From assembly GCF_002854065.1 (NCBI RefSeq), contig NZ_CP024147.1: a DNA stretch of 64,000 nucleotides. One strand, written 5' to 3'. Numbering within the stretch: the stretch's first letter is position 1; each line of letters begins with the position of its first letter. A program made the translations under genes and the position numbers. The DNA is from Escherichia coli (GTDB lineage: Bacteria; Pseudomonadota; Gammaproteobacteria; Enterobacterales; Enterobacteriaceae). The notes beneath the pieces are model-generated. The model was not told where the DNA came from. It saw only the letters and a list, made by a program, of their open reading frames with translations, and did no database searches. Below, in pieces: positions 11,412-64,000 of the stretch.

Positions 11412-11442
11412 GTGATGATTTATTCAGCGTTTGGCGAACGTA

Positions 11443-20909: not shown

Positions 20910-22295
20910 TTACTTGCCTGTGACCGCTGCTGCTGTTCCTGGCACCATCAGCTCTGTAGCAACGATAACAATCACCAGCCCAACAAGCACCGGCACCGAG
21001 GTGCGTTTTACGACTTCAAATGGTGAGATTTTCGCCATCCCGGCAACCGCAACGACTACGCCAGAAACGGGCGAAAGGGTACGGCCGAGGTTTGACGCCT
21101 GCAGCATCGGGATAGTCAAATACGCCGGGTTAATGCCGGAAGAGTGCGCCAGTTTCGGGATCATCTCAACAAACGCATAAAACGGCGCATTGCCTGAACC
21201 GGTCGTGACTGCCGCCAGCATTGTCAGAATCACCAATACCAGCATCAGGATGATACTCGCCGAACCAAACGAGGTAGCGATAGAAATCAGACTTTGAATA
21301 AAGCCGATGGTGCTAAGCCCCTGAGCGAATACCCCAGCGGCAACCAGCAGCATCACCACGTTAGCAAACGCATCTGCCATCCCGCGATAAGCCACTTCCA
21401 GACCAGAGAAAACTTTCTGGGTATTAAAGCTGCGGAGGAACTCCAGAATGGAGGCAATCAGCATACAAATCACCAGAATAGTGATGATGTGTAATTGCGG
21501 ACCCCATTTACCGTCAAAAATCAGTACACCGATGATCGGCGTGAACGGCAAAATGGCATAAAACGCAGGAGCAGTGGTGGTGATTTCACTGACATCTAAC
21601 ATTTCATGAGAGATGTGCTCTTTTTTATCCAGATAACGTTGCCAGAAGAAGTGGGCGATCGCCATGCCGATAATTGCAGCAATTGAGATAGGCAGCGTCG
21701 TTTTGAAGGCGAAGTCAATCAGCGACATTTCGGAAGCTTGCGCCGCCAGCACCACATCCCCTGAAGTCGGTGCGAGAATAATCGCCGCCGGGGAGGCACA
21801 AATGGCAGCTGCTGCCCCACGACTGATACCAACGTTTACCATCACCGGAAACAGGGTTGCCATCAGCAAAACACCCAGACCGGTTGCGGAAGAGACGGCC
21901 AGTGACATCAGACAGGCAACAAAATAGGCGGCAATCATCAGCAGGTAGGGGGAGTTAATATACTGCAATGGTTTTGACGCCAGCTTGACCACCATATCAT
22001 TCGCGCCGATATGGGTCATGTAAGCGGCAAAGCCACACAGCATCATAATCATCATGCCGAGGTCGCCGCCGCGGCTCATTAGCAATATTTTAACGTATTC
22101 AACGATATCCGTGGCGCTGTAGCCTGTTGAAGCTTGGCTGGACGGTAACACTTTGTGCCCCATAATGGCACTGATAATCAGCAATAACAGGCCACCGACA
22201 AATAACACACCAGTGGCGGAATACCCTTTAATGATGTAGCGAGCTACACCCACAATAACCACAACCCCAATAAGGAGTTCAATGAATGTCAGCAT
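20910..22295 (-). CDS. dcuC: Anaerobic C4-dicarboxylate transporter
   Basis: 461-aa polytopic membrane ORF. Confidence 0.93.
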   Translation of the reverse strand: MLTFIELLIGVVVIVGVARYIIKGYSATGVLFVGGLLLLIISAIMGHKVLPSSQASTGYSATDIVEYVKILLMSRGGDLGMMIMMLCGFAAYMTHIGANDMVVKLASKPLQYINSPYLLMIAAYFVACLMSLAVSSATGLGVLLMATLFPVMVNVGISRGAAAAICASPAAIILAPTSGDVVLAAQASEMSLIDFAFKTTLPISIAAIIGMAIAHFFWQRYLDKKEHISHEMLDVSEITTTAPAFYAILPFTPIIGVLIFDGKWGPQLHIITILVICMLIASILEFLRSFNTQKVFSGLEVAYRGMADAFANVVMLLVAAGVFAQGLSTIGFIQSLISIATSFGSASIILMLVLVILTMLAAVTTGSGNAPFYAFVEMIPKLAHSSGINPAYLTIPMLQASNLGRTLSPVSGVVVAVAGMAKISPFEVVKRTSVPVLVGLVIVIVATELMVPGTAAAVTGK

Positions 22296-22880: not shown

Positions 22881-23441
22881 ATGAACGTGAGTAAATATGT
22901 CGCTATCTTTTCCTTTGTTTTTATTCAGTTAATCAGCGTTGGTAAAGCTTTTGCTAACGCAGATGAGTGGATGACAACGTTTAGAGAAAATATTGCACAA
23001 ACCTGGCAACAGCCTGAACATTATGATTTATATATTCCTGCCATCACCTGGCATGCACGTTTCGCTTACGACAAAGAAAAAACCGATCGCTATAACGAGC
23101 GACCGTGGGGTGGCGGTTTTGGCCTGTCGCGTTGGGATGAAAAAGGAAACTGGCATGGCCTGTATGCCATGGCATTTAAGGACTCGTGGAACAAATGGGA
23201 ACCGATTGCCGGATACGGATGGGAAAGTACCTGGCGACCGCTGGCGGATGAAAATTTTCATTTAGGTCTGGGATTCACCGCTGGCGTAACGGCACGTGAT
23301 AACTGGAATTACATCCCTCTCCCGGTTCTACTGCCATTGGCCTCCGTGGGTTATGGTCCAGTGACTTTTCAGATGACCTATATTCCGGGTACCTACAACA
23401 ATGGCAATGTGTACTTTGCCTGGATGCGCTTTCAGTTTTGA
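22881..23441 (+). CDS. pagP: Lipid A palmitoyltransferase (outer-membrane beta-barrel)
   Basis: ORF 22857..23441; start set at [14 protein letters not shown] for 186 aa. Confidence 0.93.
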
Positions 23442-23615
23442 GACAAATGAAGTTTTAGTAAATTCTTTAAAATCAATGAGTAAAATAATTAACATCAAAA
23501 ATAACGCGACTTTTATCACTTTTTAGTAAAGTTGCACTGGACAAAGCGTACCACAATTGGTGTACTGGTAACCGACACAGCATTTGTGTCTATTTTTCAT
23601 GTAAAGGTAATTTTG

Positions 23616-23825
23616 ATGTCTAAGATTAAAGGTAACGTTAAGTGGTTTAATGAGTCCAAAGGATTCGGTTTCATTACTCCGGAAGACGGCAGCAAAGACG
23701 TGTTCGTACACTTCTCTGCAATCCAGACTAATGGTTTTAAAACTCTTGCTGAAGGTCAGCGCGTAGAGTTCGAAATCACTAACGGTGCCAAAGGCCCTTC
23801 TGCTGCAAACGTAATCGCTCTGTAA
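23616..23825 (+). CDS. cspE: Cold-shock-domain protein CspE
   Basis: 69-aa protein [22 protein letters not shown] with RNP motifs; ATG at 23616 inside the longer track ORF. Confidence 0.95.
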
Positions 23826-23845
23826 GATACGTCAGCAAGAATTCA

Positions 23846-23874
23846 AAACCCGCTTAATCAGCGGGTTTTTTTTG
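23846..23874 (+). terminator. Rho-independent terminator downstream of cspE
   Basis: Hairpin AACCCGC-TTAATCA-GCGGGTT followed by T8. Confidence 0.75.
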
Positions 23875-25475: not shown

Positions 25476-25516
25476 CGTGGCGAGCAGGACGCTCCCTCAA
25501 TATCTTGTTCGATACA

Positions 25517-25546
25517 AAAAACCCGCTTCAAAAAGCGGGTTTTTTA
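25517..25546. terminator. Bidirectional rho-independent terminator between tatE and lipA
   Basis: Hairpin CCCGCTT-CAAA-AAGCGGG flanked by an A6 run on one side and a T6 run on the other. Confidence 0.7.
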
Positions 25547-25575
25547 TCAGACAGATGTAAGTAATTATTACAGGA

Positions 25576-36899: not shown

Positions 36900-37931
36900 T
36901 CAACCGTCGATAAATACGTCCGCCAGGGGTTTATGGCACAACAGAAGAGATAACCCTTCCAGCTCTGCCCACACTGACTGACCGTAATCTTGTTTGAGGG
37001 TGAGTTCCGTTCGTGTCAGGAGTTGCACGGCCTGACGTAACTGCGGCTGACTTAAGCGATTTAACGCTTCGCCCATCATGCGCCGGCGGTTCTGCCATAC
37101 CCGATGCTTATCAAACAACGCACGCAGTGGCGTATGGGCAGACTGGCGTTTCAGGTTAACCAGTAACAACAGTTCACGTTGTAATGTGCGCAACAAAATA
37201 ACCGGCTCGCTGCCTTCCAGACGCAGTTGCTGAAGAATATGCAACGCGCGCTTACTTTTTCCCATCAACAAAGCATCAACCCAATGAAAAGGGGTGAAAT
37301 GCGCGGCATCATTCACCGCCTGTTCAACGCGCGGTAATGTCAGTTTGCCGTCTGGCCAGAGCAGCGATAAACGCTCCAGTGCCTGAGCCAGCGCCAGCAG
37401 GTTACCTTCATAACAGTAGCAGAGCACCTGATTTGCAGCGTCATCCAGTTCTAAGTTGAGCTGTTTTGCGCGCGCAGCAACCCAGCGGGGAAGCTGAGCC
37501 TGCTCCGGTGTCTGACAGGTCACCTGCACGCTGCGATTCGCAAGAGCAGTAAACCAGGCGGCATTTTCTTGCGCTTTGCTTAATTTATTACCGCGGACGA
37601 TCAACAGCAGGTCGTCATGCAGAAGTCCGGTGAGTGTGAGAAGTTGTTCATTGATCGCCGCATTCGGTCCGTTTTCTGGTAACAACAGCAATAGCGTTTG
37701 TCGACTGGCAAACAGACTCATAGCCTGGCATAACGAAAAGATCGCATTCCAGTCAGTGTTGGGATCAATGGAAAAAGTGTGGTGTTCTTCGAATCCTTGT
37801 GCCGCAGCTACCTGACGAACAGCGTCCTGGCTTTCCTGCAATAACAGAGGATCGTTACCAAGTAAAAGATACGCCGCGCGCAGCCCTTCATTGAGCTGCG
37901 CGCGGAGTTGTTCCGGGTACAACCGAATCAT
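36900..37931 (-). CDS. holA: DNA polymerase III delta subunit
   Basis: 343-aa ORF. Confidence 0.93.
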
Positions 37932-41896: not shown

Positions 41897-42874
41897 CTAC
41901 AGTAAATCTTCAGTCTCACGAATTTCCTGACTGACATCTCTGGTTCCGGATGACTGAACTTTACGATACAGGTCGAGAGCCTGTCGGAGATCGACAGGTC
42001 TTCCTTCTCCGTAGTGATACATAATGGCCAGGTTATACCAGGCAGTGGCGTCATTGCATTCAGCGGCTTTCGTAAACCATTCAAAGGCAGCCTGATAATC
42101 TTTCTCAACGCCTTGTCCGTGTTTATACATATAACCGATGTTGACGTAAGCGCCGACGCTCCCCTGAGCGGCAGCCTTCAGATACCAGTACATCGCTTGC
42201 TTATAGTCCTGGTCCACCCCTTCGCCAGCGTTATAATCCCATGCAATTTGAAACTGAGCATGCCGATTACCCTGCTGTGCGCTTTTCAAATACCAGAATG
42301 CGGCGAGTGTCTCGTTTTGAGCAACGCCTTTTCCGTCTTCATAAAGATCGGCCAGATTGTTTTGCGCGTCACTATGGCCTTGTAATGCAGCTTGTTTGTA
42401 CCAGAAAAATGCCAGCGTATAGTCTTGTGCGACTCCGTTGCCATTTCTGTACATCCACCCAAGATTATTTTGCGCATAAGACATTCCGCTCTCCGCGGCT
42501 ATCTGATACCAGGCAACCGCTTCTTTATAGTTGGGGTCTTCTCCACGATCCAGTATCCAGCCAAGGGCGTTGGAAGCGAAAGTATGGCCTTGTAGGGCAG
42601 CTTTTTTCAGCCAGAAGATGGCTTGCTCATTATCTTTATGACGGCTTTTATCCTCGGTATACTTTTGCCCTAAGGAATACTGTGCTTCACAATGACCTTG
42701 CTCAGCGGCCAGCTTCAGCCAGTAAAAGGCCTTTTCGTCGTCCGGAGAGTCAATTGCGCTATCGCGATTATAATAAAACCCAACAATATATTGAGCCTCA
42801 CTATCGCCTTGTTCAGCACGTTCGATAATCTCATCTATTGACAAATTATCGCAGCAACTTGACGTAAAAATCAT
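41897..42874 (-). CDS. ybeQ: Sel1-repeat (TPR-like) protein
   Basis: ORF 41897..42880; start taken at the second ATG (MIFTSSCCD) for 325 aa, though the ATG at 42880 is also possible; multiple Sel1-type repeats. Confidence 0.85.
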   Translation of the reverse strand: MIFTSSCCDNLSIDEIIERAEQGDSEAQYIVGFYYNRDSAIDSPDDEKAFYWLKLAAEQGHCEAQYSLGQKYTEDKSRHKDNEQAIFWLKKAALQGHTFASNALGWILDRGEDPNYKEAVAWYQIAAESGMSYAQNNLGWMYRNGNGVAQDYTLAFFWYKQAALQGHSDAQNNLADLYEDGKGVAQNETLAAFWYLKSAQQGNRHAQFQIAWDYNAGEGVDQDYKQAMYWYLKAAAQGSVGAYVNIGYMYKHGQGVEKDYQAAFEWFTKAAECNDATAWYNLAIMYHYGEGRPVDLRQALDLYRKVQSSGTRDVSQEIRETEDLL

Positions 42875-43037
42875 TATCATTTCCTTATGGTTGCAGATAA
42901 AAGATATTATATTTTTATGTGTTCCGTTTTTGCGTAAGTCTTATTTTATGCGTATTATGTTGTGTCGGAAAAGTATAAATAAATGAGCCTCGTAATGTAG
43001 TTTACATTCATTAAATGAATGTTTAAGGATAAATTAT

Positions 43038-43745
43038 ATGGACATAGAGTCGCAAAAAATATTGTTTGCACTTTCCACTCCGATGGAAATACGCAATGAA
43101 TGCTGTTTACCTTCGCATTCATCCCCCAAAATGTATTTAGGTACATGCTTTTTTGACCTTTCTTCCTCCTGGGGAATTGATGACCGTGATGACCTGCTGC
43201 GCACAATTCACCGAATGATCGATAACGGTCATGCCGCGCGGTTGGCAGGGTTTTATCACCGCTGGTTTCGTTATTCTCCATGTGAATGGCGTGACTATCT
43301 TGCTGAATTAAATGAGCAAGGTCAGGCTTATGCGCAATTTGTCGCCAGCACAGCCGAATGCTGTGGTGAGGGAGGAATTAAAGCATGGGATTATGTCCGG
43401 ATGGGTTTTTTAAGTCGAATGGGCGTACTTAATAACTGGTTGAGTGAAGAAGAAAGTCTATGGATCCAGTCGCGTATTCATCTACGGGCTCTACGTTATT
43501 ATAGTAACTGGCGGCAATACTTTGCCGGTTATACCTTTGGTCGGCAATATTGGCAGTCTCCCGAAGATGATAATCTGCCTTTATTACGTGAATTCTTAGC
43601 GCGTAAAGAATACGACGATTCCGGCAATGATATGTTTTATCAATTATTTGCCAGTGATGATGCGTATTACCCTACCTTGTCCTGGCAACCATTGGCTTAC
43701 TATTCTGCATGCCCGGAAACGCTTAAGGATATGAGCGACCTATGA
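43038..43745 (+). CDS. ybeR: DUF1266-like protein, paralog of YbeU
   Basis: 235-aa ORF sharing long identical blocks with YbeU (for example [20 protein letters not shown]). Confidence 0.9.
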
Positions 43746-45169
43746 AAAATTGCTGGAAGATCCTCGAAATAGAGGAAACGACTGACGTCGATATTATCCG
43801 CCGCGCTTATCTGGCGCTGTTACCGTCCTTTCATCCAGAAACCGATCCGCAGGGTTTTAAACAACTTCGTCAGGCGTATGAGGAGGCGCTACGGATTGCG
43901 CAGTCGCCTGCTAAATCTGTTTGGCAACCAGAAGAATATGAGGTAGCAGAACATGAAATTCTGCTCGCCTTTCGTGCGTTACTTGCCTCTGATAGCGAAC
44001 GTTTTCTGCCCTCCGCCTGGCAGCGATTCATTCAGCAATTAAATTATTGCTCGATGGAAGAGATTGATGAATTACGCTGGTCGCTGTGCACAATCGCCAT
44101 GAACACTGCCCATTTATCCTTCGAGTGCGTGGTGTTATTAGCAGAAAGATTGCGGTGGTTGCAGGAGGAAAACGTCGGGGAAATAGACGAAGAAGAACTG
44201 GAATCCTTTTTATATGCCATTGCGAAGGGGAATGTTTTTAACTTCCAGACCATTCTGCATCTGCCCGTTGCCGTGCAAAATGACACCATCGATTTTTACC
44301 AAATGTTCGCTCGGATTTGGTCATCGCATCCAGAATGGCTGACATTGTATTTAGCGCAACATCGCGCAGTGATTATCCCCGATGATGCAAAACTGCACAG
44401 AAATTTACTCCGCTGGTATAGCGCAGGTCGCCTGGGAATTCCCGAACTCCTGGATTACGCCCGGTCGTGGCGGGAAGCTGAACCTGATAATGAAGATGCG
44501 CGTTATTATGAATACGCGCAACGCGTCTATTGTGGAGAAGGCGAAAGCCTGCTGGCAGAACTTTGTGACTACTGGCACGAGTATCCCTCCACTCAGGCGG
44601 ATGCTTTAATGTTGCAATGGTGCCGTCAGCATCGAGTCGATTATTACCCATTAGTGGTGATGATGATTGAAGCTCGCGAACTGGTTAACGACCAGGGAAA
44701 ACCGCTACTTTATGTCCCCGGCGACAGCGCCCGTACGCGTTTTCATTTATACGAAATACTCAGCGATGAAAAACTCTCTGCGCTGGGGCGTTCACTGGTC
44801 GAGATGGTTTTGCACAAAGGACGTAAGCCGCGGATCTCACTCAAGCGTGATACAGAACATACCTTATGGCCATTATATCTAGTTGCCAAACAATTAGTGC
44901 AGGCCAGCCAACCTACAGAAGAATCATTAATGCCGATTGTAAGCCGTCTTGATGCAGAAGATCGTTGTCCACTGGAAGCATTAATTATTCGTCGATTATT
45001 AATTCAGGCGGCGAATTTTACCGAGAAGCAGACTGTTGAACCGGAGCCGCAACCGCAGCCAATGCCCGTTGCCGATGGTGGGCCAGGCTGTCTGGGCATC
45101 ATTAAAATTATTTTCTATATTTTTATCTTTGCTGGTTTGATAGGGAAAATACTCCATCTGTTCGGGTGA
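43742..45169 (+). CDS. djlB: J-domain-like co-chaperone with C-terminal membrane anchor, paralog of DjlC
   Basis: 475-aa ORF with an N-terminal J-like domain, a Pro/Glu-rich linker and a C-terminal hydrophobic helix; ATGA overlap with the ybeR stop. Confidence 0.9.
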
Positions 45170-45178
45170 CAGTCGACG

Positions 45179-45733
45179 TTAATGTGCGGGAAGCCCGGCA
45201 AGTAATCTTTCCGCATTTTTGTAATGTTGTTTGGCGGCCAGTTTTAACCATTTTTGAGATTCATAATGGTTAACATTAATACCTGAGCCATTTCTGTAGA
45301 TCAAACCTAAAGTATATTGAGCATGAGCATACCCTTGTTCAGCTGCTTCCTTATACCAGAGAATTGCTTTACGGGTGTCGGGTTTGACCCCCAGACCTTT
45401 GAGGTAGATCCACCCCAGTTTACTTTGCGCGCGTGGATTTTCCTGTTCCGCTGATTGCTCATACCAGTATCTCGCCTGTGTATAATCCAGTGGTTTACCG
45501 TCGCTACCATGAAGATAAAATTCTCCAAGGCGATATTGCGACGTTGAGTGACCATGAATCGCGGAAAGCTCCGTGGCTGCCGTGGTGAATGGAAGACTGC
45601 CCGGTGAGCTTAAATAATCAAAGGCATAATTCACCATGGCTTTATCACGCAACGTCGTTTTCTTGGGTTGGCTAATACAGGTAATTGCTGCAACTATAAA
45701 AATTGCGAATATATACATTAATTTTTTATTCAT
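45179..45733 (-). CDS. ybeT: Sel1-repeat protein with signal peptide
   Basis: 184-aa ORF with an N-terminal hydrophobic segment and Sel1-type repeats. Confidence 0.9.
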
Positions 45734-45834
45734 GTGTGAATGCTTCGATTTTCTTTTTATTTTGAAAGCGTCAAGTTTATACTCATCAATAATAAAAAAG
45801 TAGTCAGTTAATGCACTTAAGGGATTATTAACAA

Positions 45835-46542
45835 ATGAATAAGGAAGAACAATATTTTCTTTTTGCGCTTTCTGCGCCCATGGAAATACTTAATCAGGGT
45901 TGCAAACCCGCGCATGACTCGCCAAAAATGTATACCGGGATAAAAGAATTCGATCTCTCATCATCCTGGGGAATAAATAATCGTGATGATTTAATTCAGA
46001 CTATTTATCAGATGACTGATGATGGTCATGCTAATGATTTAGCTGGCTTATATCTGACATGGCATCGCTCTTCCCCTGAAGAGTGGAAAGCATTAATTGC
46101 TGGTGGCTCGGAGAGAGGGTTGATTTATACCCAATTCGTTGCCCAAACCGCTATGTGCTGTGGAGAAGGGGGAATCAAAGCTTGGGATTATGTTCGAATG
46201 GGGTTTCTGTCACGGGTCGGTGTGCTCAACAAGTGGCTGACGGAAGACGAGAGTTTATGGCTGCAATCGCGCGTCTATGTACGAGCTCACCATTACTATC
46301 ACAGCTGGATGCACTATTTTTCTGCCTATTCACTAGGGCGTCTCTACTGGCAATCTTCTCAGTGCGAAGACAACACTTCGCTACGCGAGGCGCTAACCCT
46401 GTACAAATACGATAGCGCCGGGAGTCGTATGTTCGAAGAACTGGCAGCGGGAAGCGATCGTTTCTATGCCACGCTTCCCTGGCAGCCATTAACTGTCCAG
46501 CCTGAATGCCCGGTAACGCTTAAGGATGTGAGCGACCTATGA
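45835..46542 (+). CDS. ybeU: DUF1266-like protein, paralog of YbeR
   Basis: 235-aa ORF. Confidence 0.9.
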
Positions 46543-47990
46543 AAACATGTTGGCAAATCCTCGAAATTGAAAGCACGACGCAAATAGACATTATCCGCCA
46601 GGCTTATCTTGCTCGCTTACCGTTATGTCATCCCGAAACCGATCCGCAGGGGTTTAAAGCATTACGCCAGGCCTATGAAGAGGCCCTGCGACTGGCGGTA
46701 AATCCTGTCGAGGAAGCAGATGATGAAGAAAAAGATGCCGCCGCTGAACATGAAATACTACGTGCATTCAGGACATTACTGGATTCAGAAAGTGATCGTT
46801 TTCAGCCTTCCGCCTGGCAGAAATTTATTCAGCAATTAAATACCTGGAACATGGAGGATGTCGATCAATTACGCTGGCCGCTGTGTGCAATCGCTATAGA
46901 AGCGCGATATCTTTCATTAAATTGTGCTTCTTTGCTGGCAGAGCGTTTGAACTGGCATTCGTTTAATGACAGCGAAGGAATAGATGAGGAAGAAAGGGAG
47001 GCTTTTCTTGAGGCCATTCAGGCTGGTGATTGTTTCGATTTCCTTAGCCTTCTGGAATATCCCATTGCGTTGCAGAACCAGACTGTTGAATATTACTTCG
47101 CGCTGGAACGTTGCTGTCGTTACCATCCTGACTATGTCACTGCGTTTTTGGCGATGGCAGGTCCGTGGTTAATTCCTGATGATGCGAAGTTGCATCGCAA
47201 ACTGTTGCGCTGGTACTGCTCGGTGCAAACAGGTATGGCGGAACTCATTCCTGTTGCCCAACAGTGGCAAACGGAAGAACCAGAAAGCGAAGATGCCCGG
47301 TATTACCAGTGTGCACAACGTTTGTACTGCGGCGAGGGGGAAAGCCTGCTTGCCGATCTCTGCGCGTACTGGGGAAGTTACCCATCTACACAAGCCGATA
47401 ATTTGTTGTTGCAGTGGAGCGCACAACATTGCCCGGATTATTTCGCGTTATTAGTGATGGTTATCGAAGCGCGGAGCATGGTAGATGCGCAAGGTAAACC
47501 GTTGAAATATGTTCCTGGTGAGAGCGCCCGGACGCGTCTGTTATGGGCGGAAATTTTACATAGCGGAAAACTATCGCCGTTAGGTCAATCGTTTATTGAG
47601 TCGCTATTCTTCAAACGCAAAGCATGGGCGTGGTGGAAATCGAGAGTCGGTAGCGAGACAGAAGAAGATTCACCGTTACTGGATTTGTATCGGGTAGCGG
47701 AACAGGTAGTACTTGAAGCGTTTCCGAAACAAGAGATGCTGGCCCGTCTTAATACAAGGCTGGAAGGCGGAGATGCTCATCCATTAGAGGCCATTATCAC
47801 CCGGATGCTGTTGACGAAAGTAAAACTCGAGCCGGAGGATGAAGATGTCGATGAGCCAACACCTGAAAACCATGAAGAAAAAAATGATGAGGATGAAAAA
47901 CCACAGAGCATTACCAGCATTATCAAAATCAGCTTAACGGTGCTGGTGATAGGTTATGCTCTCGGCAAAATCGCGATGTTGTTTAGTTGA
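46539..47990 (+). CDS. djlC: J-domain-like co-chaperone of HscC with C-terminal membrane anchor
   Basis: 483-aa ORF; ATGA overlap with the ybeU stop; acidic linker and C-terminal hydrophobic helix. Confidence 0.9.
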
Positions 47991-48010
47991 CGATGTGTTT
48001 TTTGCGCCGA

Positions 48011-48041
48011 TGCCGGATGCAGCATTTACGCCGCATCCGGC
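48011..48041. repeat. REP-like palindromic element between djlC and hscC
   Basis: TGCCGGATGC...GCATCCGGCA inverted repeat. Confidence 0.55.
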
Positions 48042-48049
48042 AGCCGTGA

Positions 48050-49720
48050 TTATGGGATCTCAATGGCTAAATAAACGCTCGCCCGCCGCCTGACCTCATC
48101 GACGCGGGCCATATCGTTTGACTGCAGCGCCGCATCAAAATCGGTGATCACCCGGCCAATCTCTTCTCGCTCGTCACCCAGCGCCCGCGCCCACAACTCT
48201 TCCAGTTTGGCTTTAAAGGTACGATTGATGAGCATATCGCGCGGATAAATTTTCAATGCGGATAACCGCGTCCGACTCTCTTCAATCTGCTGCGCGCTCA
48301 ATGTTACCGGGCTGTGGTTAATCACTCTGGACTTAACGCTGCCGTCTTCCAGAAGCACGTCAACTTCAAGCAAGCCGTTGATATCATAACTAAAGCGAAT
48401 ATCAATCGACTGATAAGCTCCGGTTTTCTTCAACGGCACATCGAAGGATTCCACCAGAATGTTATTTTTAACTTTGTGGTTTTCTCCCTGATAGACGTTA
48501 ACCGTAATAGAATCCTGTTCCGGGTGCATGGTCGAGTAAGTTTCTACACGCGACACCGGTACTGTGGTGTTTCGTTCAATAATCGGCGAGAAAATGCCGG
48601 AAACGCCCTGGCGGTTAACTTCAACGCCCAACGAGTAAGGGCAAATATCAGTGAGGATCACTTCTTCAATATCTTCACTGCGTAAGCGGCAGGCGGCCTG
48701 GATTGCTGCGCCCAGCGCGACAATGGTGCTCGGATCGTAACTTTGATACGGTAATTTGCCAAACAGACGCACGGCGATTCGCTGCACCAGCGGCATTTGT
48801 GACGCGCCGCCAACCAGCACCAGACTGTCGATCTGACTCGGCTTCAGACGCGCATCGCGCAATGCCTGTTCAATCGGCACTCGCAAGCGGTTAAGCAGAG
48901 GCAACCACAAATCTTCCAGTTCGTTCTCGTAAAATTCGCACTCCAGCGTTTCTTCCTGGTACTGCCAGCGAATGTGCATTGGCAATTGATTGCTACATTT
49001 TGCCGCTTCCACACAGGCGTACAGGGCAGCCAGTTCGCTCTCGTTAAGGGCTGTTTTGGCGACTTCCGCGCGTTTTAAAACTTCATCGACCAGCATATGA
49101 GTAAAATCTTCGCCACCGAGGAAGTTATCGCCCGCTGAGGCGTGAACTTCAATCACCGGCGTGGCGTACTCAAGCACCGTAACGTCAAACGTGCCGCCAC
49201 CGAGATCAAATACCAGCGAGCGGGTGTTTTGTTGGGTATGCAGGCCATACGCCATCGCAGCTGCCGTTGGCTCATTAATCAGGCGAACTGCATTTAAACC
49301 GGCTAACTCCGCTGCTAAACGGGTATGCTTGCGTTGTTCATCGCTGAAATAAGCCGGAACAGAGATCACCACATCTTTAATCGGACGTTGCAGAAATTCT
49401 TCGGCATCTTCTTTTAATGAACGTAATACCAAAGAGGACAGTTCTGGCGCGTTAAATGTGTCGCTGCCTAACCGCCAGTTGGTATTACTGCCCATTGCAC
49501 GTTTAAATAACGCTGCCGTTTTATCCGGATGCGAAGTACGCCGTGATACAGCCGGTTTTCCGACTAAAATATGATTATTTTCATCCATGCTAATTATGGA
49601 TGGTGTTAAATATTCACCGAACTTATTTGGAATTAATTGCGCGGCACCGTCTTTCCAGACGGCAATTAAACTATTGGTAGTACCGAGATCGATACCAATG
49701 GCGAGTTCTGCATTATCCAT
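48050..49720 (-). CDS. hscC: Hsp70-family chaperone HscC (Hsc62)
   Basis: 556-aa ORF with the Hsp70 N-terminal ATPase signature IGIDLGTTNS. Confidence 0.95.
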   Translation of the reverse strand: MDNAELAIGIDLGTTNSLIAVWKDGAAQLIPNKFGEYLTPSIISMDENNHILVGKPAVSRRTSHPDKTAALFKRAMGSNTNWRLGSDTFNAPELSSLVLRSLKEDAEEFLQRPIKDVVISVPAYFSDEQRKHTRLAAELAGLNAVRLINEPTAAAMAYGLHTQQNTRSLVFDLGGGTFDVTVLEYATPVIEVHASAGDNFLGGEDFTHMLVDEVLKRAEVAKTALNESELAALYACVEAAKCSNQLPMHIRWQYQEETLECEFYENELEDLWLPLLNRLRVPIEQALRDARLKPSQIDSLVLVGGASQMPLVQRIAVRLFGKLPYQSYDPSTIVALGAAIQAACRLRSEDIEEVILTDICPYSLGVEVNRQGVSGIFSPIIERNTTVPVSRVETYSTMHPEQDSITVNVYQGENHKVKNNILVESFDVPLKKTGAYQSIDIRFSYDINGLLEVDVLLEDGSVKSRVINHSPVTLSAQQIEESRTRLSALKIYPRDMLINRTFKAKLEELWARALGDEREEIGRVITDFDAALQSNDMARVDEVRRRASVYLAIEIP

Positions 49721-49803
49721 TGCATTTATATCTTGAAAGAAAAAGAGATAAACAGATTAAGACCACCCAGGTAACGCGTGGTGATCTTAATCAATGACGT
49801 GTG

Positions 49804-50739
49804 TTAAGCGTAAAATTTCAGACGATCGGCCAGTAAATCAACAAAGCTCTGACGATCAACATCGACCATTACAGTGGCATTCGGTTTATTGCCAGTCAGA
49901 TAATAATAATCAACAACCGTCATCCCCTGGGTATATTTCCCCTGTGTTTCCACGCCAACCCAGCGCTCAACAGTGGTAAACAACTCGGGTTTCAACAGCC
50001 AGGCGATGGTGCATGGGTCATGCAGCGGTGCGCCGACAAAGCCCCATTTTTCGTCTTTATGATATTCGAGGAAGAAATCCAGCAGTTCGGCAACAATGGT
50101 TGAAACAGGGTTGCCAATCGCGCGGAAACGCTCGGTGTCCTCACCGTGAATTTGTGCTTTGTGAGTAACATCCAGACCGGCCATCACCACCGGGATCCCT
50201 GACTGGAAGACAATTTCTGCCGCTTCCGGGTCAACGTAAATATTAAATTCAGCCGCAGGCGTCCAGTTACCCAGCCCCATAGCGCCACCCATAATCACGA
50301 TACGGGCAATTTTGCTATGCAGTTCCGGATGGCTATTGAGCAGCAAGGCAACGTTAGTTTGCGGTCCGGTAGAAACAATGGTGACAGGTTCCGCACTTTC
50401 ACGCAGCGTTTTCGCCATTAGCTCTACCGCCGTACAGTTTTGCGGTGCGAACGCCGGTTCCGGTAATGCCGGGCCGTCGAGACCGCTTTCGCCGTGCACA
50501 TTGTCCGCGATAATCAACTCACGCATTAACGGTTTTACCGCGCCGCCTGCTACCGGAATATCGGTGCGATTAAGCAAGGTCAGCATACGCAGAACATTGC
50601 GTAAGGTTTTTTCTGGTGTCTGGTTTCCGGCGGAAGACGTAATTGCTTTGACATCAAGCTCTGGTGAGGCGAGGGCGAGAACTATTGCGATAGCGTCGTC
50701 ATGACCTGGGTCGCAATCTAACAGAATTGGCAGTGCCAT
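49804..50739 (-). CDS. rihA: Pyrimidine-specific ribonucleoside hydrolase
   Basis: ORF 49804..50772; start set at [18 protein letters not shown] (nucleoside-hydrolase DxDxxxDD motif) for 311 aa. Confidence 0.92.
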
Positions 50740-50856
50740 TGTTGCTCCTTGTTGTGTGCTTCTTTGCGACAAGGGTAACGCCAGGATGTAACAGATACGA
50801 GGGGCGAAACGATAAAGCGTGAGATGGCGCGCAATTGGGTATGCGCGCCAGAGTGA

Positions 50857-51582
50857 TTAATGCAGGATTTTCGCGAGGAAGTCTTTTGCGCGGTCCGATT
50901 TCGGATCATCGAAGAACGCATCTTTCGGCGAGTCTTCAACAATTTTACCCTCATCCATAAAGATCACCCGATTCGCCACTTTACGGGCAAAGCCCATTTC
51001 GTGGGTCACCACCATCATGGTCATCCCCTCGTTCGCCAGTTCCACCATCACGTCCAGCACTTCGTTGATCATCTCCGGGTCTAGTGCCGATGTGGGTTCG
51101 TCGAACAGCATCGCAATAGGATCCATACACAATGCGCGAGCAATTGCCACACGCTGCTGCTGGCCGCCGGAAAGCTGCGCCGGAAATTTATTGGCATGTG
51201 CGGAAAGTCCCACGCGCTCCAGCAATTTCAATGCTTTTTCACGAGCCGGTGCTTTATCGCGTTTAAGCACTTTCACCTGCGCTAGGGTCAGGTTTTCGAT
51301 AATCGACAGATGAGGGAACAGCTCGAAATGTTGGAATACCATCCCGACGCGAGAACGCAGCTTTGCCAGATCGGTTTTCTTGTCGTTAACCACGATACCA
51401 TCGACGGTGATTTCACCTTGCTGCACTGGTTCGAGGCCGTTGACGGTTTTAATCAGCGTTGATTTGCCGGAACCAGACGGGCCGCAAACCACCACCACTT
51501 CGCCTTTTTTCACTTCGGTTGAGCAGTCGGTCAGCACCTGAAAGTGACCATACCATTTTGAAACATTTTTCAGGGTAATCAT
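50857..51582 (-). CDS. gltL: Glutamate/aspartate ABC transporter ATP-binding protein
   Basis: 241-aa ORF with Walker A (GPSGSGKST) and the ABC signature LSGGQQQR. Confidence 0.95.
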
Positions 51583-52256
51583 TATGCTGTCCTTCTTTTC
51601 AAGTAGCTGACCAACAACGACGCGCTAAGGCTAATAACGAAATAAACAAATCCGGCAAACAGGATCATCTCAACCTGCGTACCATCACGCTCACCAATGG
51701 TTGAGGCGGTACGGAAGAAATCGGCCAGAGATAACACATACACCAGCGAGGTATCCTGGAACAGTACGATGCCCTGAGTGAGCAGCAGCGGCACCATCGC
51801 GCGGAACGCCTGCGGCAGAATAATCAGTTTCATCGACTGCCAGTGAGTCATTCCCAACGCCAGCGCGGCGCTAGACTGACCACGAGAAATACTTTGAATA
51901 CCAGCACGGATAATCTCTGAATAGTAGGCCGCTTCAAACATCGAAAACGCCACCATCGCCGAAATTAAACGGATATCATTTTTTGGCGATAATCCCAGCA
52001 CGTTTTGCAGAAAACCCGGCACGATCAGGTAAAACCACAGCAAAACCATAACTAAAGGAATCGAGCGGAATACGTTAACGTAGGCTTTGGCAAACCACGC
52101 TACGGGCGCAAAGCTGGACAAGCGCATCACCGCCAGCATGGTGCCCCACAAAATACCAATCACGACTGCCGTGACGGTGATTTTCAGCGTGATCACTAGC
52201 CCGTCGAGCAGATATGGCAGGGAAGGGACAATGGAACTCCAGTCAAACTCGTACAT
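51582..52256 (-). CDS. gltK: Glutamate/aspartate ABC transporter permease
   Basis: 224-aa membrane ORF. Confidence 0.93.
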
Positions 52257-52996: not shown

Positions 52997-53008
52997 AAAT
53001 CTACTCCA

Positions 53009-53043
53009 GAAAAAAGAGGGTAGCAGCGTTAACTGCTACCCTC
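53009..53043 (-). terminator. Intrinsic terminator/attenuator between gltI and gltJ (3' end of SroC)
   Basis: 11-bp perfect stem, 6-nt loop and a 6-U tail on the minus strand. Confidence 0.65.
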
Positions 53044-53165
53044 GAAGATTGTTACCCAGCGTATTGCGGTTTTCAGGCCCGATGGGGAACGACCATCAGG
53101 CGTATAGTCTGTCCGTGCTACGTAACAATTGAGAGGGCTGGAATTTCCGCCCCTGGTTCTTGTAA
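53009..53165 (-). ncRNA. sroC: SroC small RNA region (gltI-gltJ intercistronic, ending at an intrinsic terminator)
   Basis: Perfect 11-bp hairpin GAGGGTAGCAG-CGTTAA-CTGCTACCCTC followed by a U-run on the minus strand; the position matches the known SroC locus. The 5' end is not determinable from sequence. Confidence 0.5.
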
Positions 53166-54074
53166 TTAGTTCAGTGCCTTGTCATTCGGTTCTTTGAACA
53201 GTGCTTTCATTTCGTCTGACAGTTCGAAATTCATGTTCAGGTTTTTCGGCGGAATTGGATTTTTGAACCATTTATCAAACCATTTTTCCGCTTCACCGGA
53301 GGTCTGCACCTGAGCGATGGTGTCATCCATCAGCTTTTTGAACTGCGGATCGTCTTTACGCAACATGCAACCGTAGGCTTCCTGAGACTGCGGCTTGCCG
53401 ACGATATCCCAGTTGTCTGGTTTCTTCGCTTTCGCACGTTCACCGGCCAGCAGGGCATCATCCATCATAAAGGCAACGGCACGACCGCTTTCCAGGGTGC
53501 GGAAAGAGTCACCGTGATCTTTGGCGCTGATGATGCGCATATTCATTTTTTGCTCTTCATTCAGTTTGTTGAGCAAAACTTCAGAGGTAGTGCCGGAAGT
53601 GACGACTACGGCTTTGCCTTTCAGGTCGGCAAAATCTTTGATATCGCCGCCCTTTTTGGTCAACAGGCGCGTACCGACCACGAAAATAGTGTCAGAGAAA
53701 GCCGCCTGTTTTTGGCGTTCGACGTTGTTGGTGGTAGAACCACATTCAAAATCGAAAGTGCCGTTTTGCAGAAGAGGAATACGGTTTTGTGAGGTGATCG
53801 GAATCAGTTTCACCTGCAAGTCCGGTTTGTTGAGTTTCTTTTTCACTGCTTCAACAATGGCGTTGGAGTAATCCTGCGAATAACCCACCACTTTTTGCTG
53901 ATTGTCGTAATAAGAGAAAGGTACTGAAGATTCACGGTGACCGACGACAATCACGCCGTTTTTGGCGATTTTGTCCAGCGTACTGCCCGCTGCCGGGGCG
54001 GCGTCATCTGCCTGTGCCAGTCCTGCGGAAAGCGCAAGGGCCAGGATTGCTGTGGCAGGTTTACGTAATTGCAT
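53166..54074 (-). CDS. gltI: Glutamate/aspartate periplasmic binding protein
   Basis: ORF 53166..54149; start set at the ATG at 54074 (MQLRKPATAILALALSAGLAQA signal peptide) for 302 aa. Confidence 0.93.
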   Translation of the reverse strand: MQLRKPATAILALALSAGLAQADDAAPAAGSTLDKIAKNGVIVVGHRESSVPFSYYDNQQKVVGYSQDYSNAIVEAVKKKLNKPDLQVKLIPITSQNRIPLLQNGTFDFECGSTTNNVERQKQAAFSDTIFVVGTRLLTKKGGDIKDFADLKGKAVVVTSGTTSEVLLNKLNEEQKMNMRIISAKDHGDSFRTLESGRAVAFMMDDALLAGERAKAKKPDNWDIVGKPQSQEAYGCMLRKDDPQFKKLMDDTIAQVQTSGEAEKWFDKWFKNPIPPKNLNMNFELSDEMKALFKEPNDKALN

Positions 54075-54470
54075 ATCCAACTCCTTTATCTTCTGCGTTA
54101 AGAACGCATGGATACCCGTTGTGAGTGTTTGTGTTGTTATCGTCTGCAACTTTATTGTGCAGTGTTGTGACTGTTAGGTAACATTTAGTTTGGGTAAATG
54201 TAAAGATATTGATGTTTTATTGTTTGTTTTTGCGAGGTGCACCGCACCATTCCGAAGCAAAATTCTTAAAATGCACTCTTTTGGTGCTACCGGTGGATTG
54301 CTGTGGTGCAACCGGGTTGTACTGATGCTGGTTAAAGCTTTGCCTGGTATAACAAAGCAATAGATGTGCCAAAGTTGGATAGGAGAATATTGTTATCCGG
54401 ATAATGCACTGATGCCGCATCCGGTGAGCGTGCCGAAATATGGGATGTATTCCGGCACGATAAGAAGGGA

Positions 54471-60228: not shown

Positions 60229-61404
60229 ATGACAAATCAACCAACGGAAATTGCCATTGTCGGCGGAGGAATGGTCGGCGGCGCACTGGCGCTGGGGCTG
60301 GCACAGCACGGATTTTCGGTAACGGTGATCGAGCACGCAGAACCTGCACCGTTTGTCGCTGATAGCCAACCGGACGTGCGGATCTCGGCGATCAGCGCGG
60401 CTTCGGTATCATTGCTTAAAGGGTTAGGGGTCTGGGATGCAGTACAGGCTATGCGTTGCCATCCTTACCGCAGACTGGAAACGTGGGAGTGGGAAACGGC
60501 GCATGTGGTATTTGACGCAGCCGAATTAAAGTTGCCGTTGCTTGGCTATATGGTAGAAAACACTGTCCTGCAACAGGCATTGTGGCAGGCGCTGGAAGCG
60601 CATCCGAAAGTAACGTTACGTGTGCCAACCTCGCTGATTGCGCTGCATCGCCATGATGATCTTCAGGAGCTGGAGCTGAAAGGCGGTGAAGTGATTCGCG
60701 CGAAGCTGGTGATTGGTGCCGACGGCGCAAATTCGCAGGTGCGGCAGATGGCGGGAATTGGCGTTCATGCATGGCAGTATGCGCAGTCGTGCATGTTGAT
60801 TAGCGTCCAGTGCGAGAACGATCCCGGCGATAGCACCTGGCAGCAATTTACTCCGGACGGACCGCGTGCGTTTCTGCCGTTGTTTGATAACTGGGCATCG
60901 CTGGTGTGGTATGACTCTCCGGCGCGTATTCGCCAGTTGCAGAATATGAATATGGCACAGCTCCAGGCGGAAATCGCGAAGCATTTCCCGTCGCGTCTGG
61001 GTTACGTTACACCGCTTGCCGCTGGTGCATTTCCGCTGACGCGTCGCCATGCGTTGCAGTATGTGCAGCCAGGGCTTGCGCTGGTGGGCGATGCTGCGCA
61101 TACCATCCATCCGCTGGCGGGGCAGGGGGTGAATCTTGGTTATCGTGATGTCGATGCCCTGATTGATGTTCTGGTGAATGCCCGCAGCTACGGCGAAGCG
61201 TGGGCCAGTTATCCTGTCCTCAAGCGTTACCAGATGCGGCGCATGGCGGATAACTTCATTATGCAGAGCGGTATGGATCTGTTTTATGCCGGATTCAGTA
61301 ATAATCTGCCGCCACTGCGTTTTGTGCGTAATCTTGGTTTGATGGCGGCGGAGCGTGCTGGCGTGTTGAAACGTCAGGCGCTGAAATATGCGTTAGGGTT
61401 GTAG
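60229..61404 (+). CDS. ubiF: Ubiquinone biosynthesis flavin-dependent hydroxylase
   Basis: ORF 60223..61404; start set at MTNQPTEIAIVGGGMVGG (FAD-binding motif) for 391 aa. Confidence 0.93.
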   Translation: MTNQPTEIAIVGGGMVGGALALGLAQHGFSVTVIEHAEPAPFVADSQPDVRISAISAASVSLLKGLGVWDAVQAMRCHPYRRLETWEWETAHVVFDAAELKLPLLGYMVENTVLQQALWQALEAHPKVTLRVPTSLIALHRHDDLQELELKGGEVIRAKLVIGADGANSQVRQMAGIGVHAWQYAQSCMLISVQCENDPGDSTWQQFTPDGPRAFLPLFDNWASLVWYDSPARIRQLQNMNMAQLQAEIAKHFPSRLGYVTPLAAGAFPLTRRHALQYVQPGLALVGDAAHTIHPLAGQGVNLGYRDVDALIDVLVNARSYGEAWASYPVLKRYQMRRMADNFIMQSGMDLFYAGFSNNLPPLRFVRNLGLMAAERAGVLKRQALKYALGL

Positions 61405-61510
61405 CCTTACAACATTGCCGGATGCGTGCCAACCGTAGGTCGGATAAGACGCGGCAGCGTCGCATCCGACATTGAAGGATAAGACGTGTCAACATCGCAT
61501 TCGACATTGA
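61405..61510. repeat. REP elements, two adjacent related units
   Basis: GTAGGTCGGATAAGACGCGGCAGCGTCGCATCCGAC resembles the REP consensus, followed by a degenerate second copy (GGATAAGACGTGTCAACATCGCATTCGAC). Confidence 0.6.
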
Positions 61511-61520
61511 ATGAACGCAG

Positions 61521-61555
61521 AAAAGCAAAAAGCTCGCCGAAGCGAGCTTTTTTAA
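61521..61555. terminator. Bidirectional rho-independent terminator (ubiF and the tRNA operon)
   Basis: Hairpin AGCTCGC-CGAA-GCGAGCT flanked by A-rich and T-rich runs. Confidence 0.65.
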
Positions 61556-61557
61556 TG

Positions 61558-61632
61558 TGGCTGGGGTACGAGGATTCGAACCTCGGAATGCCGGAATCAG
61601 AATCCGGTGCCTTACCGCTTGGCGATACCCCA
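61558..61632 (-). tRNA. glnX: tRNA-Gln (anticodon CUG)
   Basis: 75-nt reverse complement of the tRNA-Gln sequence, including the CCA end; anticodon loop ATTCTGATT. Confidence 0.95.
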
Positions 61633-61669
61633 ACTGGGTGCACTTACAAGGTAAGCGTCTTGAATAAAT

Positions 61670-61744
61670 TGGCTGGGGTACGAGGATTCGAACCTCGGAA
61701 TGCCGGAATCAGAATCCGGTGCCTTACCGCTTGGCGATACCCCA
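61670..61744 (-). tRNA. glnV: tRNA-Gln (anticodon CUG)
   Basis: Identical copy of the 61558-61632 sequence. Confidence 0.95.
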
Positions 61745-61791
61745 ACAAATTGGTTTTGAATTTGCCGAACATATTCGACACATTCAGAATT

Positions 61792-61868
61792 TGGTGGCTA
61801 CGACGGGATTCGAACCTGTGACCCCATCATTATGAGTGATGTGCTCTAACCAACTGAGCTACGTAGCC
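61792..61868 (-). tRNA. metU: tRNA-Met (elongator, anticodon CAU)
   Basis: 77-nt reverse complement of elongator tRNA-Met, with CCA. Confidence 0.95.
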
Positions 61869-61883
61869 AGATTGTTTCTTCGA

Positions 61884-61958
61884 TGGCTGGGGTACCTGGA
61901 TTCGAACCAGGGAATGCCGGTATCAAAAACCGGTGCCTTACCGCTTGGCGATACCCCA
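61884..61958 (-). tRNA. glnW: tRNA-Gln (anticodon UUG)
   Basis: 75-nt tRNA-Gln with anticodon loop TTTTTGATA. Confidence 0.95.
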
Positions 61959-61992
61959 ATAACCGGGCGGTGAACCGCTTACTCGAAGAAGA

Positions 61993-62067
61993 TGGCTGGG
62001 GTACCTGGATTCGAACCAGGGAATGCCGGTATCAAAAACCGGTGCCTTACCGCTTGGCGATACCCCA
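61993..62067 (-). tRNA. glnU: tRNA-Gln (anticodon UUG)
   Basis: Identical copy of the 61884-61958 sequence. Confidence 0.95.
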
Positions 62068-62090
62068 TCCGTACAACGCTTTCTGGTGAA

Positions 62091-62175
62091 TGGTGCGGGA
62101 GGCGAGACTTGAACTCGCACACCTTGCGGCGCCAGAACCTAAATCTGGTGCGTCTACCAATTTCGCCACTCCCGC
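62091..62175 (-). tRNA. leuW: tRNA-Leu (anticodon UAG)
   Basis: 85-nt type-II tRNA with a long variable arm, with CCA. Confidence 0.93.
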
Positions 62176-62183
62176 AAAAAAGA

Positions 62184-62260
62184 TGGTGGCTACGACGGGA
62201 TTCGAACCTGTGACCCCATCATTATGAGTGATGTGCTCTAACCAACTGAGCTACGTAGCC
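62184..62260 (-). tRNA. metT: tRNA-Met (elongator, anticodon CAU)
   Basis: Identical to the metU copy. Confidence 0.95.
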
Positions 62261-62292
62261 ATCTTTTTTTCGCGATACCTTATCGGCGTTGC

Positions 62293-62350
62293 GGGGCGCA
62301 TTATGCGTATAGAGCCTTGCAGCGTCAACCTCTTTTTCAAGGAAAATTGC
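62293..62350 (-). promoter_or_regulatory. Stable-RNA promoter of the metT-leuW-glnUW-metU-glnVX tRNA operon
   Basis: On the minus strand: -35 TTGACG (62328-62323), 17-bp spacer, -10 CATAAT (62305-62300), then the GC-rich discriminator GCGCCCCGC and an AT-rich tract upstream. Confidence 0.6.
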
Positions 62351-62600
62351 TCGAAAGTGACTGTTTGGTTAGGTTGCGAACAGCGTGGCGCTATATTCGT
62401 CAATTATTGTTTACTTTGTGTTTTTTCCCCACCCTACAGCCATTCTTTTGTCATACAGGATGAAATTCGGAATTTAACAATAGTGGTGGGAAATTAATCT
62501 ATGAAATACTGGCCTACAGTAATGAGTTGTCAAACAGTGATGTGGCAAACCCGGAACATTTCCTTACTGCATATCAGAATCAACAAGCACCTCAATAACT

Positions 62601-62632
62601 GAAACAGCCCCGGATTTCACCGGGGCTGTTTC
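62601..62632 (-). terminator. Putative terminator downstream of asnB
   Basis: Hairpin AAACAGCCCCGG-(loop)-CCGGGGCTGTTT; the U-tract is weak. Confidence 0.45.
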
Positions 62633-62639
62633 GCATTTC

Positions 62640-64000
62640 TTACTTATACGCCGACTGGTGAACACCAACCGCGCGACCAGACGGATCGTCCATTTTCTTG
62701 AACGCTTCATCCCATTCGATCGCTTTAGCGGAAGAACACGCGACGGAAGGACCGCCCGGCACGCACTCAGCGGCGCTCGGAAGCGGGAATAGTTCTTCAA
62801 AGATCTCCCGGTACAGATACGCTTCTTTTGAGGTCGGTGTGTTGTACGGGAAGCGGAAGCGGGCAGTTTCCAGCTGTTGATCAGAAACCTGCTGCGCCGC
62901 CACTTCTTTCAGGGTGTCGATCCAACTGTAACCGACGCCATCGGAGAACTGCTCTTTCTGCCGCCAGGCCACGCTTGCGGGCAGGTATGACTCAAAACAT
63001 TCACGCAGGATGTGTTTTTCCATCTTGCCGTTACCGCACATTTTATCCTGCGGGTTAATGCGCATCGCCACGTCGAGGAATTTCTTGTCGAGGAACGGAA
63101 CGCGTGCTTCCACGCCCCAGGCTGACATCGCTTTGTTGGCACGCGCGCAGTCATACATATGGAGGGCCAGCAGTTTACGCACCGTCTCTTCATGCAGTTC
63201 TTTGGCATTCGGTGCTTTGTGGAAGTAAAGATAACCGCCGAACACTTCATCAGAACCTTCACCGGACAGCACCATTTTAATGCCCATCGCTTTGATCTTA
63301 CGCGACATTAAATACATCGGTGTTGAAGCGCGAATAGTGGTCACATCATAGGTTTCGATGTGGTAAATCACGTCGCGGATGGCGTCCAGACCTTCCTGTA
63401 CAGTGAAGTGAATTTCATGATGCACAGTGCCCAGATGGTTTGCCACTTCCTGGGCTGCTTTCAGATCCGGTGAACCCGGCAGACCTACAGCAAAGGAGTG
63501 TAACTGCGGCCACCAGGCTTCAGAGCGTTCCTGATCTTCCACGCGACGGGCTGCGTATTTCTTGGTGATAGCGGAAATAATTGAGGAATCCAGACCACCA
63601 GAAAGCAGCACACCGTAAGGCACATCAGACATCAGATGGCTTTTAACGGAATCTTCCAGAGCCTGACGCAGCTCGTTTTTGTCGGTGACATTATCTTTCA
63701 CCGCATCGTAGTCGAACCAGTCGCGATGATAATAAGAACGGATTTCGCCGTCCTGACTCCACAAATAGCTCCCCGCCGGGAACTCTTTAATCGTGCGGCA
63801 TACCGGCACGAGGGCTTTCATTTCTGAGGCCACATACAGCTGACCATGTTCGTCATAGCCCATATACAGTGGGATGATCCCCAGATGGTCGCGACCAATC
63901 AGGTAGGCATCTTTTTCGCTGTCGTACAGGGCAAAGGCAAACATGCCCTGCAAGTCGTCGAGAAATTCCGGCCCTTTTTCCTGATACAGCGCGAGGATCA
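62640..64000 (-). CDS. asnB: Asparagine synthetase B (glutamine-hydrolysing), 3' portion; start lies outside the window
   Basis: Minus-strand frame open to the window end; the translated portion includes the PP-loop motif SGGLDSS and matches the AsnB C-terminal domain. Confidence 0.9.
   Translation of the reverse strand, partial: ILALYQEKGPEFLDDLQGMFAFALYDSEKDAYLIGRDHLGIIPLYMGYDEHGQLYVASEMKALVPVCRTIKEFPAGSYLWSQDGEIRSYYHRDWFDYDAVKDNVTDKNELRQALEDSVKSHLMSDVPYGVLLSGGLDSSIISAITKKYAARRVEDQERSEAWWPQLHSFAVGLPGSPDLKAAQEVANHLGTVHHEIHFTVQEGLDAIRDVIYHIETYDVTTIRASTPMYLMSRKIKAMGIKMVLSGEGSDEVFGGYLYFHKAPNAKELHEETVRKLLALHMYDCARANKAMSAWGVEARVPFLDKKFLDVAMRINPQDKMCGNGKMEKHILRECFESYLPASVAWRQKEQFSDGVGYSWIDTLKEVAAQQVSDQQLETARFRFPYNTPTSKEAYLYREIFEELFPLPSAAECVPGGPSVACSSAKAIEWDEAFKKMDDPSGRAVGVHQSAYK

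Follow-up and report, generated by a model that had tools for sequence, protein, structure and literature searches.

REP elements, and the BIMEs in which they cluster, have been known in Escherichia coli for about 40 years. REPs are short imperfect palindromes, present in hundreds of copies per genome, whose spread and amplification on single-stranded DNA are ascribed to the REP-associated tyrosine transposase (RAYT/TnpAREP); their classical role is that of a barrier to exonucleases. E. coli K-12 carries 584 of them (PMC3333891). A REP is recognized in the published descriptions by a GTAG tetranucleotide, a mismatch bulge, an extragenic position and a copy number in the hundreds (PMC3333891, PMC3479197, PMC2817692). 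In vitro, TnpAREP needs both GTAG and the AA:GC bulge, and either a mutated GTAG or a perfectly paired bulge abolishes binding and cleavage (PMC3333891, PMC3479197). Binding of IHF and gyrase belongs to particular arrangements of REPs, namely BIME-1, which has the L linker, and the BIME-2 arrays (PMC3333891, PMC2817692). REPs located less than 16 nt after a stop codon have also been reported to cause ribosome stalling and lower translation (Liang, Rudd and Deutscher 2015, as summarized in PMC12306157).

The window considered here, i.e., the whole 64,000-nt stretch of E. coli DNA that was analyzed, contains REP-like sequences in two spacers lying 13 kb apart, between ubiF and glnX and between djlC and hscC (Table 1). 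Both sites are very probably resident, partly decayed REP/BIME copies, for which a role as RNA hairpins at mRNA 3' ends is proposed. They are real but ordinary, already known elements. Gene order in the studied region matches that of MG1655, and both spacers are identical or nearly identical in that strain. The 153-nt ubiF-glnX spacer is the same base for base in MG1655, and differs by one substitution in O157:H7. The MG1655 RefSeq annotation used for the comparison shows no repeat_region at these loci, nor in another stretch known to have one. The two stretches compared with strain CUWW06 (NZ_CP182139.1), 61200-61700 and 42000-52000, show 100% identity.

Table 1. Genes, REP-derived pieces and hairpins at the two spacers (window coordinates).
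Feature	Position	Strand	Sequence or remark
djlC	end 47990	+	convergent with hscC
REP-derived near-perfect palindrome	48011-48042		TGCCGGATGCAGC-ATTTAC-GCCGCATCCGGCA; sole hairpin of the 59-nt spacer between convergent djlC and hscC
hscC	end 48050; stop codon 48050-48052	-	
ubiF	end 61404		gene context as given in the earlier note
Head-only remnant of an inverted y-type REP	61413-61426	-	plus strand CATTGCCGGATGCG, minus strand CGCATCCGGCAATG; remainder of the REP gone
REP-b, intact REP	61435-61470	+	GTAGGTCGGATAAGACGCGGCAGCGTCGCATCCGAC; GTAG at 61435-61438
Head-to-tail direct repeat, 35-nt units	61442-61476 and 61477-61511		86% identity
REP-c, degenerate REP copy	61477-61511	+	no GTAG
Intrinsic terminator hairpin, not a REP	61527-61552		AAAAAGCTCGC-CGAA-GCGAGCTTTTT; ends the tRNA operon on the minus strand
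glnX	61558-61632	-	
Seven-tRNA operon metT-leuW-glnU-glnW-metU-glnV-glnX	61558-62260	-	

Only one of the three pieces found in the ubiF-glnX spacer, REP-b, is a complete REP. It follows the ubiF stop codon at a distance of 30 nt, counted to its GTAG, or 34 nt, counted to the foot of its hairpin. The two 14-nt arms (61439-61452 and 61457-61470) are 86% complementary and 4 nt apart. They form a seven-pair foot (GTCGGAT/ATCCGAC), a 2x2 AA:GC internal loop, a five-pair inner stem and a four-base loop, the inner stem-loop being of the z type (GACGC-GGCA-GCGTC). The RNA fold reaches -21.3 kcal/mol (z -4.33), and none of 200 shuffles is as stable. All the published marks of a REP are present in REP-b: GTAG, bulge, extragenic position and copy number.

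The last of these marks comes from searches beyond the window. With a 46-nt query around REP-b, at least 40 related places are found in each of 5,425 out of 5,426 complete E. coli genomes. Over 215 kb of the source genome, a strict structural scan, in which GATAA...GCATC had to come with base pairing in both the foot and the inner stem, detects 14 REPs, versus 0-1 in 20 shuffles (about 0.05). These 14 extrapolate to about 300 REPs per genome under the same criteria. These 14 REPs fall into two groups, y with a 12-nt middle (GGCGTTyACGCC) and z with a 14-nt middle (GACGCGnnAGCGTC). REP-b, which is accompanied by 13 other REPs in the scan, shares GTAG, the AA:GC 2x2 loop and the 14-nt inner stem-loop with the z-type copies, and its GTCGGAT/ATCCGAC foot is rare, being found in 1 of the 14 sampled REPs. 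Judged by its sequence, REP-b is a z-like variant with compensatory changes in the foot. A rayT gene is annotated as a single copy outside the window, at 1099669-1100166 of NZ_CP182139.1, with REPs on both sides, the arrangement of the classical REPtron. The earlier note had assigned these repeats to the REP type and suggested a genome-wide search for relatives, whose absence would have refuted it; the assignment is supported both by the features of REP-b and by the copies found elsewhere, and the copies at both loci are all intergenic.

A weak REP-like relic, CCGGATAATGCACTGATGCCGCATCCGG, was also noticed at 54397-54424, in the gltI-lnt spacer. Its foot and AA:GC bulge are kept, there is no GTAG, its inner stem has decayed and its fold has a z of -1.2; MG1655 has IS5D in the same spacer, where the window has no IS. 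In Rfam, the minus strand matches naRNA4 (RF02564) weakly at 61438-61506 (31.2 bits) and at 47989-48042 (26.1 bits), for a gathering score of 59.5, and no other Rfam family overlaps either site. Elsewhere in the window, four families score above gathering, all expected in this region of E. coli: the sRNA sroC at 53008-53170 (-), a cspA-type thermoregulator at 23431-23873 (+), the rnk leader at 10339-10447 (-) and STnc70 at 5149-5242 (+). A match to the c-myc IRES at 21601-21746 (+), with 30.3 bits for a gathering score of 40 (E 1.2e-4), is almost certainly spurious.

Two adjacent REP-like units, one of them degenerate, had been described between ubiF and glnX. Both are indeed present, but the second one, REP-c, does not form a stable hairpin, its fold of -6.5 kcal/mol (z 0.04) being at chance level. 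On the minus strand, each 35-nt unit of the direct repeat consists of TTCAAT and then of a tail-less REP, the missing tail being GACCTAC. The third piece, the head remnant, was absent from this first description and is variable among strains. It is separated from REP-b by an 8-nt linker and forms an inverted repeat with 61461-61474, being the inverted complement of the intact REP over its head and flank. The whole cluster, on the minus strand, is TTCAAT-(REP-c)-TTCAAT-(REP-b)-GACCTAC-linker-(head of inverted y REP), and the spacer would then correspond to an old, partly decayed atypical BIME. In a 150-nt fold, the head remnant and the head of REP-c pair in an outer stem. A functional role was rejected for this stem because the B2 strains show extra mismatches there, according to our reading of the alignments; we regard it as a side effect of the REP ancestry common to both pieces.

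Between the convergent djlC and hscC genes, a similar palindrome had been placed at 48011-48041; it is there, and one base longer. Its 13-nt arms are 92% complementary and flank a 6-nt loop, and the minus strand folds at -29.6 kcal/mol (z -5.39) with 13 continuous pairs. The hairpin lies 7 nt from the hscC stop codon and 20 nt from that of djlC. The 64-kb window has 5 palindromes of this quality (at least 12 of 13 arm matches), versus none in 10 dinucleotide shuffles. The remaining ones are located at 11382-11413, 25514-25547, 37872-37907 and 62600-62633; those at 25514 and 62600 resemble intrinsic terminators, and the latter is also in the list given by the terminator scan. No GTAG is found on either side of the djlC-hscC palindrome, and paired bases replace the AA:GC bulge. 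The palindrome is clearly REP-related, a REP derivative, and its right half can be aligned to the head half of the canonical inverted y REP carried by longer alleles of this spacer. It could represent the remains of the same kind of BIME as at ubiF-glnX, most of which would have been lost to leave a head-to-head palindrome. Two routes can be envisaged. A longer BIME may have undergone a deletion running from the head of its first unit to the y REP, or the left arm of the y REP may have been "corrected" with the hairpin as template.

The proposal that these repeats are transposase targets may hold for one of them. REP-b has all the features that TnpAREP requires, and could act as a competent recognition module. 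The djlC-hscC palindrome and REP-c do not have these features, and would be immobile relics not recognized by TnpAREP. The palindrome in particular is unlikely to be a transposase target because it has neither GTAG nor the bulge, and we infer that it should be inert to TnpAREP.

The history of the ubiF-glnX cluster was followed in an alignment of six sequences, one each from E. albertii and E. whittamii and four from E. coli strains that belong to distinct phylogroups. Within REP-b, 2 of 36 columns are variable across these species, both of them loop bases (61454-61455), whereas 28 of 86 vary in the spacer flank outside the terminator (Fisher p = 0.0011). The corresponding figures are 10 of 35 for REP-c and 0 of 26 for the terminator. 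It follows from this pattern that the REP arrangement is older than the divergence of the three species, and that constraint or homogenization acts on the REP-b stem while its duplicate drifts.

On the scale of complete genomes, the comparison of orthologous spacers that the earlier note had called for reveals polymorphic REP content at both sites. Of 5,424 genomes, 5,401 have an intact ubiF-glnX junction. In 38 genomes (e.g., Rb-50), the head remnant, REP-b and half of REP-c are swapped for an unrelated G+C-rich palindromic dispersed repeat. In the Rb-50 alternative allele (L005, 508-652), this repeat reads CCCCTCGCCCCTTGGGGAGAGGGTTAGGGTGAG...; E. coli genomes carry it at a median of 14 places, none of them annotated, and it may resemble the boxC-type repeats. 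A set of "2-piece", 547-nt matches, which looked like a 46-nt insertion, proved to be an artefact of the duplicated tRNA-Gln genes, the spacer being 153-154 nt long there. At djlC-hscC, a short form of the spacer is found in 4,369 complete genomes and a long form in 77, and about 1,050 of 5,426 genomes give no match to the junction, the whole ybeQ-hscC island being replaced by a small cassette. This island (42000-49800 in the window) consists of ybeQ-ybeR-djlB-ybeT-ybeU-djlC-hscC, which are chaperone/TPR genes; in strain 88-3493, three small genes, one of them encoding a DUF6985 protein, take its place between ybeL and rihA. Neither REP element is indispensable, given the 38 genomes with the other repeat and the roughly 1,050 from which the hscC island is missing. 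Their polymorphism offers a possible minor marker for strain typing.

Two suggestions about the position of these REPs did not hold. They had been considered to mark points of variable gene order, but the ubiF-glnX junction is nearly always intact, and a REP as the island boundary was rejected, since similarity resumes at 49778-49801, in the hscC-rihA spacer, which is the right breakpoint and not a REP. They had also been described as flanking the tRNA operon. They are actually found on its terminator side only, and none was seen on the metT-asnB side (62261-62640), either by direct reading up to 62400 or when the motifs of the REP head and tail were searched for across the window.

The function proposed for both sites lies at the RNA level. 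The REP elements would be transcribed as the 3' ends of the ubiF, djlC and hscC mRNAs, and we infer that stable hairpins at these ends would block 3'-to-5' exonucleases. The djlC-hscC palindrome would then provide the only hairpin for both convergent transcripts. Downstream of ubiF, the tRNA operon terminator has T runs on either side, which makes it a plausible terminator for ubiF too, on the plus strand; REP-b would therefore lie within the ubiF 3' UTR. This is the sole terminator-like site near the REPs, none being detected at REP-b or in 47700-48400. The exonuclease barrier formed by REP-b may be redundant with this hairpin downstream. An effect on translation may be added for one gene: the hscC hairpin falls under the reported limit of 16 nt because it starts 7 nt after the stop codon, and may be a candidate translational damper, whereas the distances for djlC (20 nt) and from ubiF to REP-b (30-34 nt) exceed this limit. 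A literature search pairing ubiF and glnX returned nothing relevant.

The copies might instead be neutral relics of selfish repeats, with no effect on the flanking genes, REP-b being conserved through gene conversion or RAYT activity. This is a serious possibility, if not a probable one. It fits with the coexistence of long and short djlC-hscC alleles, with natural isolates having alleles without REPs, and with the decay of REP-c and of the head remnant at the rate of the surrounding spacer; the ubiF 3' end is, besides, already protected by the terminator hairpin. Instead of local selection, the invariance of REP-b could reflect the concerted evolution of family members, or gene conversion between them. 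However, conversion would be expected to erase its rare foot, and changes limited to the loop bases across three Escherichia species, next to a copy that has drifted, are typical of stem constraint.

The long djlC-hscC alleles are informative as to how the clusters were built. Their minus-strand layout is the same as in the ubiF-glnX spacer, with 35-nt units that are identical to the REP-b unit at 30 of 35 positions and set in the same register, and the arrays at both loci end in GACCTAC followed by the inverted y REP or its remnant. The 110-nt djlC-hscC spacer of E. coli RMDEC465 is made of a partial REP, TTCAAC, GTCGGATGCGATGCTAACGCATCTTATCCGACCTAC, GAG and an inverted canonical y REP. In Escherichia sp. 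MOD1-EC7003, this spacer contains (TGCCGGA)5 and three tandem copies of the 35-nt unit, along with the inverted y REP already seen in RMDEC465. The 7-nt microsatellite of MOD1-EC7003, directly upstream of the tandem units (L010, 3246-3285), has the REP head motif as its repeat. Array size ranges from 0 to 3 units at djlC-hscC and is 2 at ubiF-glnX. The junction between units, CTTATCCTTCAAYGTCGGATGCG, was searched for by an exact scan of 100,044 species-representative genomes and occurs in three places only: the orthologous ubiF-glnX spacers of E. albertii and E. whittamii, and the djlC-hscC spacer of MOD1-EC7003. The E. coli representative genome is not among these matches. B2 strains are substituted at the degenerate base of the junction, and a B2 origin of the representative would explain the missing match.

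These similarities could be pushed further. The 35-nt tandem unit (TTCAAY plus a z-like REP without the GACCTAC tail) would be a distinct, locally propagating REP sub-family, produced by RAYT-driven, rolling-circle-like unit addition, with purifying selection maintaining REP-b, its single intact copy, either for a role in the ubiF 3' UTR or for recognition by RAYT. RAYT-driven addition is proposed because the unit junction reads CC/T, like reported cleavage sites. Taken as a whole, this set of propositions is unlikely.

A role at the DNA level, with gyrase, IHF, HU or Pol I sites organizing supercoiling next to a highly transcribed tRNA operon, appears very unlikely. The location would be appropriate, since the cluster lies directly downstream of the seven-tRNA operon, and there are precedents in the reports of gyrase and IHF binding to BIMEs and of Pol I binding to REPs (PMC2817692), and in that of REP cruciforms bridged by HU and naRNA4 (PMC4550694). 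However, the known determinants are missing. The IHF consensus WATCAANNNNTTR is absent from both strands of both spacers, as is the L linker, so that neither spacer has the y-L-z1 layout of BIME-1. Nor is there a BIME-2 tandem of y-S-z2 pairs, the units here being direct, in one orientation, with a single intact REP. The two naRNA4 scores are far under the gathering score. The gyrase or IHF binding suggested in the earlier note thus finds no support at these copies. As for the palindromes being simple intrinsic terminators, or chance inverted repeats resembling REPs, this is hardly credible: both do stand at gene 3' ends, and the djlC-hscC one is the sole hairpin between two convergent genes, but a T tract is missing downstream of both hairpins, whichever strand is read, shuffles never yield such palindromes, and the sequences are kin to hundreds of REPs and to canonical REPs present at the same locus in other strains.

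What is added to the existing knowledge is modest, and its importance beyond correct annotation is little. It can now be said which of the four REP-like pieces is complete and which ones are relics, and that an atypical tandem architecture is common to both loci; the suggestions concerning IHF and gyrase, or gene order, are left without support at these copies.

Several described systems can be compared with these two sites. Among them are the subterminal hairpins of the IS200/IS605 family and the REPINs of Pseudomonas, which also associate an imperfect hairpin with a 5' guide tetranucleotide, a Y1 HUH transposase and single-stranded DNA (PMC3333891, PMC3479197). The host genome here likewise has one RAYT gene. 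In contrast to these systems, neither locus has a transposase gene between hairpins, and there are no inverted REP doublets. The weak naRNA4 matches at both sites arise from naRNA4 (REP325) being itself a y-l-z2 REP pair, but the scores are under threshold and the six-fold y-l-z2 array is missing, and neither site is an naRNA gene.

Another comparison is with the y, z1 and z2 REPs of E. coli itself. Like them, REP-b carries GTAG on its 5' side and an AA:GC bulge in a hairpin of some 36 nt, is extragenic and has a high copy number. Its foot differs from those of the sampled z (GCATGAT/ATCAGGC) and y (GCCGGAT/ATCCGGC) copies, and REP-c and the djlC-hscC palindrome differ more deeply, both being devoid of the defining GTAG and bulge. 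At the level of the cluster, BIME-1 and BIME-2 are built of alternating REP/iREP pairs, whereas a 35-nt direct repeat, made of a tail-less REP and TTCAAT, is found here in one orientation; this direct tandem arrangement departs from the textbook definition of a BIME. The two loci nevertheless share with BIMEs, as atypical members, the clustering of REPs, the short linkers and an inverted y REP, or its remnant, placed tail-to-tail with a z-like REP. They also share with tandem BIMEs a copy number which, for a given locus, differs between strains, as described in PMC3333891.
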